Translations under genes and position numbers: made by a program
Shown here: positions 3,569 to 5,084 of the stretch, piece after piece
How the letters are laid out: every line of letters begins with the position of its first letter
Position numbering within the stretch: the first letter of the stretch is position 1
The notes under the pieces: generated by a model
Told to the model about the DNA's origin: nothing
Databases searched by the model: none
The model's input: the letters and a program-made list of their open reading frames with translations, nothing else
Source of the DNA: a virus
Lineage: Duplodnaviria; Caudoviricetes
Reading direction: 5' to 3' (one strand)
Length of the DNA stretch: 64,000 nucleotides
Virus record (IMG/VR): IMGVR_UViG_3300037400_002350
Span: 1 to 64,000 of that record

Positions 3569-4168
3569 ATGGCTAAAGACGATAAAAACACACAGGCCGT
3601 TGTCACAACCGAAGACAACATTATGGAGGAAATCCGTAACACTAATCTCGCAGAAATAGATTTAGGCGAGAAAGTCATGGAAGAAATCAAGAAGGAGAAA
3701 GATGAGCGTAAGGCTCGCGAAATCAAGCAGCGCTATTTGCGTGCTGATTACAACGAGAAGCTTGCCAAAGTCGACATGCTTCACGTTAAACGCCTCAACG
3801 ACATCACCCGTTATCAGTTGACCCAATCAGGTCGTCTGCGTCGTCTCCTCATGGGTTTCAAGGTAGACAAACTGGCTATAGAGTACAGCAGTCACCACGA
3901 GGATGACATCCTGAACATGGAATCCTGCGATAAGAAGGCTGGAACTATCACTATCACAACTAAGTCTGGTAAGAAGACTTACAAAGATGGCGATAAAGTT
4001 CCTGCAGCCATCACTGTAGTAGAGTACGACCGTGCTTTGCAGACACTCGCTGACAAGATCCGCAACATGAAGAATGAAGAGGACAAGCAGCACAGCAAAG
4101 ACATCGACGAGCTCGACAACAGCTTCGGTGACTATTATGTAAGCTCTTGGCGTTACTTCCGTTGGTAG
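3569..4168 (+). CDS. Hypothetical coiled-coil protein (TAG stop), directly upstream of the motif-array RNA
   Basis: 199 aa, charged and helical; codon usage (AAG, ATC, CGT) suggests high expression. Confidence 0.8.
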   Translation: MAKDDKNTQAVVTTEDNIMEEIRNTNLAEIDLGEKVMEEIKKEKDERKAREIKQRYLRADYNEKLAKVDMLHVKRLNDITRYQLTQSGRLRRLLMGFKVDKLAIEYSSHHEDDILNMESCDKKAGTITITTKSGKKTYKDGDKVPAAITVVEYDRALQTLADKIRNMKNEEDKQHSKDIDELDNSFGDYYVSSWRYFRW

Positions 4169-4485: not shown

Positions 4486-4623
4486 ACAACTAAAACTCAG
4501 ATTATCTTTTCAATAATACTCAGAGACAGGGGGAGAACAGCTGCTCTCTCTGTCAAAGAGTATAATTTTAAGGACATGGAGTTTAAGTATTCTTGTCTGA
4601 TCAATAAGAATATTTACAATTGA

Positions 4624-4875
4624 AGTGTGTGTGAGGTAAACTGTTTGGACGAGGGTTCGATTCCCTCCAGGTCCACGTTGGCAATGCCAGCAATTTTTGC
4701 ATAAGCCCCTTCGGGGGCAATTGGGCCTGACATGGTTTTGACAGCAGTGGAAGTAAACACATTAAGCACTTTAATATAAAATTAACTGGCAATATTAATG
4801 TCAATGACTACACCAAGCTAGCAGCTTGATGGTTCTTACTAAGATTTAAGTCACGTGCTAACTACGAAAGTGAGG
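4624..4875 (+). ncRNA. ssrA: Circularly permuted (two-piece) tmRNA; tag (A)GNINVNDYTKLAA*
   Basis: T-arm GAGGG-TTCGATT-CCCTC and 3' acceptor CAGGTCC-A (4651-4675) lie before the 5' acceptor GGGCCTG (4723-4729, G3-U70 pair); D-loop TGGTTTTGAC; tag frame 4788-4829 follows TAACT; outer ends approximate. Confidence 0.88.
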
Positions 4876-4877
4876 AT

Positions 4878-4927
4878 TGGAAGTTGTCTAATTTTGGAGG
4901 CTTGGGGTTCGAATCCCCGACTTCCAA
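4878..4927 (+). ncRNA. tRNA-like mini-element (acceptor stem + T-arm, no canonical D or anticodon arm)
   Basis: TGGAAGT/ACTTCCA 7-bp stem; T-arm TGGGG-TTCGAAT-CCCCG; 18-nt connector. Confidence 0.65.
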
Positions 4928-4940
4928 CAAATTTTAGATT

Positions 4941-5084
4941 ATGAAAGGATTCATTATATTATACAAAATTGAAGACGAAAAAGCAAAAGAGTTTGAAAAA
5001 TCTCTTAATGAAGATTCTTCCGTTATAAATTATATCGAAGATGATTTTGAAAGCGCTTCGTCTATGTTCCGTCATGAACTATAA
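4941..5084 (+). CDS. Small acidic hypothetical protein (47 aa)
   Basis: ATG..TAA ORF filling the gap, below the track length cutoff. Confidence 0.5.
   Translation: MKGFIILYKIEDEKAKEFEKSLNEDSSVINYIEDDFESASSMFRHEL

Follow-up and report, generated by a model that had tools for sequence, protein, structure and literature searches.

The question raised by positions 4,624 to 4,875 of the DNA analysed here is whether a bacteriophage carries a gene for its own circularly permuted, two-piece transfer-messenger RNA (tmRNA), and, if so, where the permuted form came from and what the RNA would do in the infected cell. Two-piece tmRNAs are textbook cases of rare gene permutation and are recognised in three cellular lineages. 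The window, meaning the whole stretch analysed, is the first 64 kb (64,000 nucleotides) of IMG/VR record IMGVR_UViG_3300037400_002350, a 100,968-bp virus sequence with direct terminal repeats from a crAss-like gut phage whose replication genes are ~70% identical to those of RefSeq crAss-like phages in the family Suoliviridae, subfamily Oafivirinae (cr131_1, cr272_1, cr7_1 and cr124_1 included). An earlier note made from the letters alone had proposed a phage-encoded permuted tmRNA at this place and had named ARAGORN in tmRNA mode and the permuted-tmRNA models of Rfam as the checks to run. Both of these independent detectors call a permuted tmRNA. ARAGORN returns "tmRNA*, permuted" at 4586-4920, placing the 3' tRNA domain ahead of the 5' one and reading the tag as GNINVNDYTKLAA*, and the Rfam model RF04321 (tmRNA_permuted) matches 4625-4829 with 72.1 bits (E 6.7e-12) against a gathering cut-off of 47 bits. 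The results described below show what the gene is, that it is built in two pieces, and that its RNA pairing and its encoded peptide are both under selection, and the locus is very probably a working two-piece tmRNA gene.

The permutation is seen directly, as a hidden Markov model (HMM) of 57 one-piece Bacteroidales tmRNAs matches the window in swapped order, its positions 360-394 aligning with window 4641-4676 and its positions 1-125 with window 4723-4830. HMMs built from the phage family score 88.9 bits for the coding piece and 67.7 bits for the acceptor piece. The acceptor strands, T-arm and tag named in the earlier note all lie where it had placed them. On the plus strand the acceptor piece (4624-4675, defined by the ARAGORN 3' tRNA domain, the Rfam alignment, covariation and cofolding) comes first, followed by a 47-nt intervening spacer (4676-4722) and the start of the coding piece (4723-4770).

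The pairing of the two pieces was examined in at least 23 distinct close relatives collected by IMG/VR pattern scans, from RefSeq records and with the family HMMs; pair counts refer to an alignment of 23 relatives anchored on invariant landmarks. The acceptor stem of the window has 7 bp, with the 5' strand GGGCCTG (4723-4729) pairing with the 3' strand CAGGTCC (4668-4674), and is followed by the discriminator A4675; the CCA is not genome-encoded. The G3·U70 alanine determinant noted earlier is present in this stem and is unchanged in the 23 relatives, and acceptor pairs 4-7 vary with compensation (GGGCCTG/CAGGTCC, GGGCGTG/CACGTCC, GGGCCAT/ATGGTCC, GGGCGAT/ATCGTCC and GGGGCGT/ACGCTCC), bearing in mind that 7/7 pairing was itself the criterion by which the acceptor stem was found in relatives. 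The T-arm (GAGGG/TTCGATT/CCCTC, 4651-4667) has a T-loop of the GTTCGANN type, matching the general tmRNA definition, and its stem is paired in 115/115 cells with several pair types. Helix 2, described earlier as a pairing of CAGCAGT with upstream sequence, is present and proves longer than described, since two further inter-piece helices extend it. Segment P2a pairs CTGTTTG (4641-4647) with CAGCAG (4742-4747) and is paired in 154/155 cells, with 2-5 standard pair types at each position; P2b (4628-4632/4757-4761) is paired in 115/115 cells with an A-U/G-C exchange at one position; and P2c (4624-4627/4767-4770) is paired in 91/92 cells with two covarying positions.

Taken together, the three inter-piece helices show pairing in 360/362 cells and have undergone many compensatory changes, and when the 3' strands are shifted by one or two bases the paired fraction falls from 99% to 21-56%. 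When the two predicted pieces are folded together with RNAcofold, the acceptor stem, T-arm and helix 2 all reappear. The helix-2 segments pair sequence 5' of the T-arm with sequence 3' of the 5' acceptor strand, and the RNA must therefore act as two paired pieces or as a precursor folded in the same way. Between these helices lie an internal loop on each side (4633-4640 and 4748-4756), the triplet GAC (4648-4650) linking the 5' strand of P2a to the T-arm, the D-loop analogue ACATGGTTTTGA with its GG (4730-4741), and a UUAAG bulge (4762-4766) between P2b and P2c that is invariant across the relatives.

The tag reading frame (4788-4829) begins with the GGC resume codon at 4788 directly after TAACT, encodes GNINVNDYTKLAA and ends with the TGA stop at 4827-4829. 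The glycine resume codon after UAACU fits the style of Bacteroidales tmRNAs, and the description of the tag as Bacteroidota-like is borne out. All 23 aligned relatives keep the frame open, and tags are called in six further relatives. The tripeptide DYT is invariant in the 23 despite codon variation (GAC/GAT, TAC/TAT and ACC/ACT/ACA/ACG), which indicates that selection acts on the peptide. Stop codons of the tag in the 23 relatives are TAA in 16 and TGA in 7, with TAG in none. Among close relatives the tags are of the types [G/D]NVNNIVDYT[N/H/C]VA, GNYNVVDYTHVA and GN.N..DYTGL[Q/K]EAA; those of other subfamilies are GNNFVTDYTAIGA, GNNFVTDYTQLAVA, GNFYVTDYTRIAA and GNTSYIMNYSRIAA. Conservation of the peptide spans three subfamilies. 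The phage tags are 12-15 amino acids long compared with 9 in host tags, and the tag of the window is the sole one ending in LAA among those listed.

Helix 2 is joined to the resume codon by a single-stranded A/U-rich linker ending in UAACU (4771-4787), which occupies the place of pseudoknot 1. The linker between P2c and the resume codon measures 15-19 A/U-rich nt in all 23 relatives, too short for pseudoknot 1, which is absent here, and the hairpin expected at this place by RF04321 is unmatched. This loss is additional to those listed in the earlier note, which had pseudoknots 2-4 as apparently lost. Most of that set is indeed gone, the ~48 nt from the stop codon to a downstream tRNA-like element holding no set of pseudoknots 2-4, but one small pseudoknot-like element (CGUG-CUAAC-UACG-AAA-GUGAG, 4854-4874) remains. 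Its stem S1 is formed by CGTG (4854-4857) and TACG (4863-4866), and its stem S2 by CTAAC (4858-4862) and GTGAG (4870-4874) with one A·G mismatch. At the variable S1 pair, 19 relatives have G-C, 2 have A-U and the window has C-G; S2 has 5-7 bp in the relatives with widely varying, covarying sequence. The version in the window recurs in cr50_1 and cr10_1 of the subfamily Boorivirinae; by itself it is not thermodynamically significant (z = +0.3), its support coming from covariation only. A pairing of the linker with the post-tag region that might replace pseudoknot 1 was looked for by eye, and no consistent covariation was found. The RNA has thus lost pseudoknot 1 and kept one small pseudoknot downstream of the tag.

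Four observations weigh against a working tagging RNA. The first is the absence of pseudoknot 1, which in Escherichia coli tmRNA supports tagging. Secondly, four relatives (L245, L249, L252 and L254) have non-canonical T-loops (AGACATA, GTCGCA, GGCAGAG and AGGCATA); the same four lack the GG of the D-loop analogue, with TGT, TGC or TAG replacing TGG, and are uncalled by ARAGORN, yet their tag frames are intact. The joint change of T-loop and D-loop gives the impression that the tRNA elbow has been rewired in a coordinated manner. Thirdly, many relatives have tags ending in VA, EAA or GA rather than the host ALAA, and in such relatives the fate of the tagged products may differ from that of host-tagged ones. 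Finally, no tmRNA is found by RF04321 in the Loutivirinae cr56_1, cr109_1 and cr113_1, and the tmRNA is therefore dispensable for such phages.

The spacer is predicted to be excised as the 3' trailer of the acceptor piece together with the 5' leader of the coding piece. Three mini-hairpins had been described in it; its minimum-energy fold contains two stable hairpins, the UUCG-capped one among them, and the third is missing. In relatives the spacer ranges from 17 to 176 nt with unconserved sequence. The 176-nt spacer of L245 holds an open reading frame (ORF) of 53 amino acids (3955-4116, minus strand of that locus) whose stop codon directly adjoins the start of the 5' acceptor strand, and which is homologous (41.5% identity, E 1.5e-11) to a 47-amino acid ORF at window 4941-5084, located directly after the tRNA-like element. 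A complete tRNA-His gene is present inside the spacer of cr114_1 (L419:943-1015), and the spacers of cr50_1 and cr10_1 (L399/L418) contain an additional T-arm-like element. A spacer that can host an ORF or a tRNA gene suggests that the two halves act as separate tRNA-like processing units within a tRNA cluster. Downstream of the coding piece, sequence and fold define an anticodon-less tRNA-like element (4878-4927) composed of an acceptor stem and a T-arm; the same 3' slot in relatives is occupied by a full tRNA or a tRNA-like element. An RNase P cut at the 5' end of this element would most likely determine the 3' terminus of the coding piece.

From this layout the phage would transcribe a single precursor to be cut by host tRNA-processing enzymes. 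RNase P would cut before G4723 and ahead of the tRNA-like element at ~4878, an endonuclease or exonuclease would trim the 3' side after A4675, and the CCA-adding enzyme would supply CCA. The mature RNA would then comprise ~210 nt, with an acceptor piece of ~55 nt (~4624 to 4675, with CCA added) alongside a coding piece of ~155 nt (4723 to ~4877), the two held together by the 7-bp acceptor stem and the three helix-2 segments. Host alanyl-tRNA synthetase would charge it with alanine through G3·U70 and A73, and host SmpB and EF-Tu would bring it to ribosomes stalled on broken mRNAs. Translation would resume at GGC and append (A)GNINVNDYTKLAA, freeing the ribosome and marking the product, so that tagged products would end in AGNINVNDYTKLAA. 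No SmpB gene is found in the 100,968-bp phage genome, and host SmpB, alanyl-tRNA synthetase, EF-Tu and tRNA-processing enzymes are therefore required. The most economical reading is that the RNA likely adds to the capacity for ribosome rescue in the infected Bacteroidales cell and does so with a phage-specific tag.

Where the permuted form came from is addressed by comparison with the cellular lineages. Bacteroidota tmRNAs are normally one-piece, as the earlier note had stated; all 62 of the 62 loci inspected here have that form, and the tmRNA database table lists 24,380 standard and 48 permuted genes for the phylum (PMC11915505). The suggestion of an independent permutation in a phage is plausible. 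On the favourable side, the window falls below the cut-offs of all three older two-piece models, and relatives from other Suoliviridae lineages keep the host-type acceptor stem. The beta_tmRNA model (RF01850) gives the window 46.2 bits (cut-off 84) and cyano_tmRNA (RF01851) 39.5 bits (cut-off 70), and alpha_tmRNA (RF01849, cut-off 50) gives no match at the locus and 4-bit noise elsewhere, with a loose first filter that could miss a weak match. The two-piece tmRNAs described by these models share with the window the gene order and the processing into two paired pieces; the window differs in being without pseudoknot 1, in resuming at Gly rather than Ala and in the ~210-nt length of its mature RNA.

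The one-piece Bacteroidales tmRNA shares with the window the D-loop analogue UGGUUUUGA, a GUUUGGACGAGGGUUCGA-type T-arm region, the Gly resume codon in the UAACUGGC context (in the 57 host tmRNAs) and an N-rich tag with Y followed by an Ala-rich end. It differs in being unpermuted and ~395 nt long, which leaves room for the usual pseudoknot set that the phage RNA lacks, and in its 9-amino acid tags ending in ALAA (GENNYALAA, GNNNFALAA). Bohxovirus and cr10_1 carry exactly the host acceptor stem GGGGCUG/CAGCUCC; cr50_1, cr114_1, cr115_1 and L255 have the host-type G4-C69 pair. When 50,697 phage records were queried with a Bacteroides tmRNA, mainly the tmRNAs of crAss-like phages were returned. 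A Bacteroidales source is indicated by this query together with UGGUUUUGA, GUUUGGACGAGGGUUCGA, the Gly codon in its UAACUGGC context and the host acceptor stem, and an independent permutation of a host-derived gene is the probable, though unproven, origin of the Suoliviridae tmRNA. Several points temper this conclusion. Searched against the window with nhmmer, the Bacteroidales panel scores 27.6 and 11.4 bits, the phage permuted panel 29.1 bits and the phage standard panel 34.1 and 12.9 bits, all from panels fetched with biased motifs; position weights for the resume region give 11.2 bits for the host, 4.9 for the beta type and 14.5 for a diffuse A-rich phage matrix. Neither the profiles nor the matrices tell the candidate sources apart, and the likeness of the resume context could be convergence forced by the host SmpB and ribosome.

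The foremost alternative is descent from a lineage that had been permuted before, such as the beta type common in aquatic phages, with the resume context and tag adapted to Bacteroidota later. A permuted tmRNA is likewise encoded in the early region of aquatic phages, among them the marine OM43 phage Melnitz (PMC9004378), and the bacterial hosts of these phages are reported to have two-piece tmRNAs themselves. The RNAs of these aquatic phages, those from IMG/VR with ANDExFALAA tags included, match the cellular alpha or beta lineages and retain pseudoknot 1, in which they differ from the window. The rarity of circular permutation favours a single origin, the overlap of the host and phage panel scores (27.6 and 11.4 against 29-34 bits) leaves room for one, and beta_tmRNA is the best of the older lineage models for the Suoliviridae tmRNAs, with 25-46 bits in 9/10 relatives scanned and no match at E<=0.001 for L003, L247 and L346. 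All of these beta_tmRNA scores nevertheless fall well short of the 84-bit cut-off, and what matches is confined to the universal tRNA-like domain. Many permuted tmRNAs of IMG/VR phages that reach 100-158 bits with beta_tmRNA do share the window's acceptor stem GGGCCUG/CAGGUCC, but the common C4-G69 pair was imposed by the search pattern, and it appears to be derived within the Oafivirinae since Bohxovirus, L255, cr10_1, cr50_1, cr114_1 and cr115_1 keep GGGG/CUCC. The Gly resume codon, UAACUGGC and UGGUUUUGA match Bacteroidales and not the beta type (GUAAAUGCAAAC, UUUCGAC), and the query with the Bacteroides tmRNA points the same way. Descent from an older permuted lineage is accordingly judged a possible but doubtful origin. 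The origin from the host gene can be taken one step further, to a fourth independent tmRNA permutation that would have arisen inside the phage lineage from the Bacteroidales one-piece gene and been pared to ~210 nt without pseudoknot 1, with a DYT tag that could steer stalled products to another fate; in this full form the proposal is tentative.

On the side of function, extra rescue capacity has to be weighed against an RNA that competes with or re-programmes host trans-translation, through a phage tag that escapes or redirects proteolysis or through titration of SmpB. The greater length of the phage tags, their phage-specific DYT core and the VA, EAA or GA endings of many of them agree with this idea, and a precedent exists in the tmRNA of mycobacteriophage DS6A, which lacks a coding sequence and is reported, as cited in PMC11915505, to act in this way. 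The tag of the window itself, however, has the canonical LAA end, and purifying selection on the tag frame argues for real tagging, being silent on the fate of the product. Competition with the host system is thus considered unlikely.

Fainter still is the prospect that the tmRNA exists specifically for a switch in the genetic code, serving ribosomes that stall at UAG or read past it once the suppressor tRNA appears. The switch itself, which the earlier note had assumed, is confirmed. For the most part, the early genes on the plus strand end in any of the three stop codons; the late-gene frames on the minus strand (window 24522-58177) contain frequent in-frame TAG, with 72 in a frame of 5,657 codons and 22 in one of 2,194 codons, and a tRNA with anticodon CTA is encoded on the minus strand at record positions 91355-91428, outside the window. 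In favour of the proposal are this recoding and the lack of any tag frame of the family ending in TAG; moreover, all Oafivirinae examined have both the tmRNA and tRNA(CTA) with the exception of Bohxovirus, in which the tmRNA is found by Rfam only, no tRNA(CTA) is called and the code is ambiguous. Host tags likewise avoid TAG, however, those listed ending in TAA or TGA. More tellingly, cr50_1 uses the standard code, with an ORF content of 21,621 amino acids under code 11 compared with 22,283 with TAG as sense (longest frame 4,775 codons), and has no suppressor tRNA, yet it has the tmRNA, at 60.3 bits, whereas cr56_1 and cr109_1 recode TAG with tRNA(CTA) and have no tmRNA. The tmRNA and recoding dissociate in both directions, so the proposed tie to the code switch falls away and a special link to TAG is improbable. 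The remaining alternative, a decaying relic or mere tRNA-like processing signals without tagging, would account for the aberrant T-loops of some relatives, the missing pseudoknot 1 and the loss in Loutivirinae, but is effectively refuted by compensatory covariation in every helix and by a tag frame that is whole in 23 relatives and six more, with its peptide conserved over three subfamilies.

The tmRNA gene occurs in three of the four Suoliviridae subfamilies tested. RF04321 finds it in all Oafivirinae genomes examined (cr272_1, Bohxovirus, Dulem virus 42, cr130_1, cr124_1, cr131_1, cr7_1 and two complete IMG/VR genomes), and it is present in the Boorivirinae cr50_1 (RF04321) and cr10_1 (ARAGORN) and in the Uncouvirinae cr115_1 (RF04321) and cr114_1 (ARAGORN). 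RF04321 scores fall below the cut-off, at 35-42 bits, for cr131_1, cr272_1, Dulem virus 42, cr115_1, L250 and L245, and the tmRNA of Bohxovirus is missed by ARAGORN, so that annotation pipelines under-call the gene. RF04321, a merged two-piece model (PMC11915505), has the acceptor piece before the coding piece as in the window; it covers the tRNA-like domain only, and the hairpin it places after helix 2 is lacking in the window. The label "transfer-messenger RNA, SsrA" is already attached in RefSeq to about ten crAss-like genomes, namely the Oafivirinae cr131_1, cr124_1, cr7_1, cr272_1 and cr273_1, the Boorivirinae cr50_1 and cr10_1, and further cr114_1, cr60_1 and cr125_1. These RefSeq tmRNAs share with the window an early-region slot upstream of a sigma-factor gene, small neighbouring ORFs, the permuted order, the helix-2 layout, the DYT core and the 3' tRNA or tRNA-like element. 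The window differs from them in its short spacer (47 nt) and in its tag, unique among those listed, and its post-tag element is the Boorivirinae version rather than the usual Oafivirinae one.

The novelty implied in the earlier note was therefore overstated, as RefSeq annotates the gene in sister phages and two-piece tmRNAs of phages are published. One is carried by phage Melnitz, and the paper on it counts 53 two-piece forms in phage genomes (PMC9004378); a tmRNA database paper of 2025 includes 79 bacteriophage sequences (PMC11915505). Text searches of the literature found no paper that links crAss-like phages with tmRNA or describes the permutation or architecture, and Yutin et al. 2021, the chief comparative analysis of these phages, makes no mention of tmRNA. 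The gene is already catalogued by automated annotation and is not described in the papers searched; for the unusual architecture and likely separate origin of the Suoliviridae tmRNA no description was located.

The locus places a permuted lineage in highly abundant phages of the human and animal gut whose hosts use the one-piece form, and the Suoliviridae tmRNA offers a fresh, datable case of how permutation arises. It is at the same time a minimal natural version of a tagging tmRNA, one that lacks pseudoknot 1; if the RNA is active, that pseudoknot would be dispensable in a natural tagging tmRNA. The dissociation from recoding means that Suoliviridae phages invest in ribosome rescue independently of stop-codon reassignment.

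Ahead of the acceptor piece, the window and most close relatives have two further plus-strand elements. The first is a hairpin (4588-4612, fold z-score -3.9) with the stem TATTCTT/AAGAATA and a loop containing CTGATCA; in relatives the stem varies with compensation and the loop TGATCA is retained. The second is the motif TTTACAA (4613-4619), recognised from alignments and lying 4-9 nt ahead of the point at which the acceptor piece starts to pair. In a four-sequence alignment (window, cr124_1, cr131_1 and cr7_1) ATTTACAA is unvarying, and in a 17-sequence alignment TTTACAA is kept in most clade-A rows, several clade-B rows deviating. This motif is a possible promoter or 5'-end determinant of the tmRNA, and the region 4588-4619 as a whole could be a promoter, terminator or processing signal. 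The -7 promoter consensus of Bacteroides is TAnnTTTG; region 4588-4619 has no match to it. At the window start, positions 1-48 hold a partial tRNA-Met (CAT) gene, which is complete at record positions 100816-100890 because the record has direct terminal repeats.

Permuted tmRNAs were also observed outside the Suoliviridae. The Chryseobacterium phage MA9V-3 (PV245944.1, L417:848-1206) has a permuted tmRNA by ARAGORN, with the tag GNVIDINKYVAKLEVAA and a Gly resume codon. It is a cultured lytic phage of Chryseobacterium indologenes, whose paper lists "tmRNA, SsrA" only, together with a ClpX-like gene (PMC13120357), and it could serve as an experimental system for the two-piece tmRNAs of Bacteroidota phages. 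In IMG/VR more than 50 contigs (L124-L241) contain permuted tmRNAs with ANDExFALAA-type tags. Nine of these were scanned, all nine scoring above the RF04321 cut-off and eight scoring best on RF01850 with 100-158 bits; L130 matches alpha_tmRNA rather than beta. Some tags of this group extend up to 31 amino acids, with the common segment TFDFSAMSFTGNTV.

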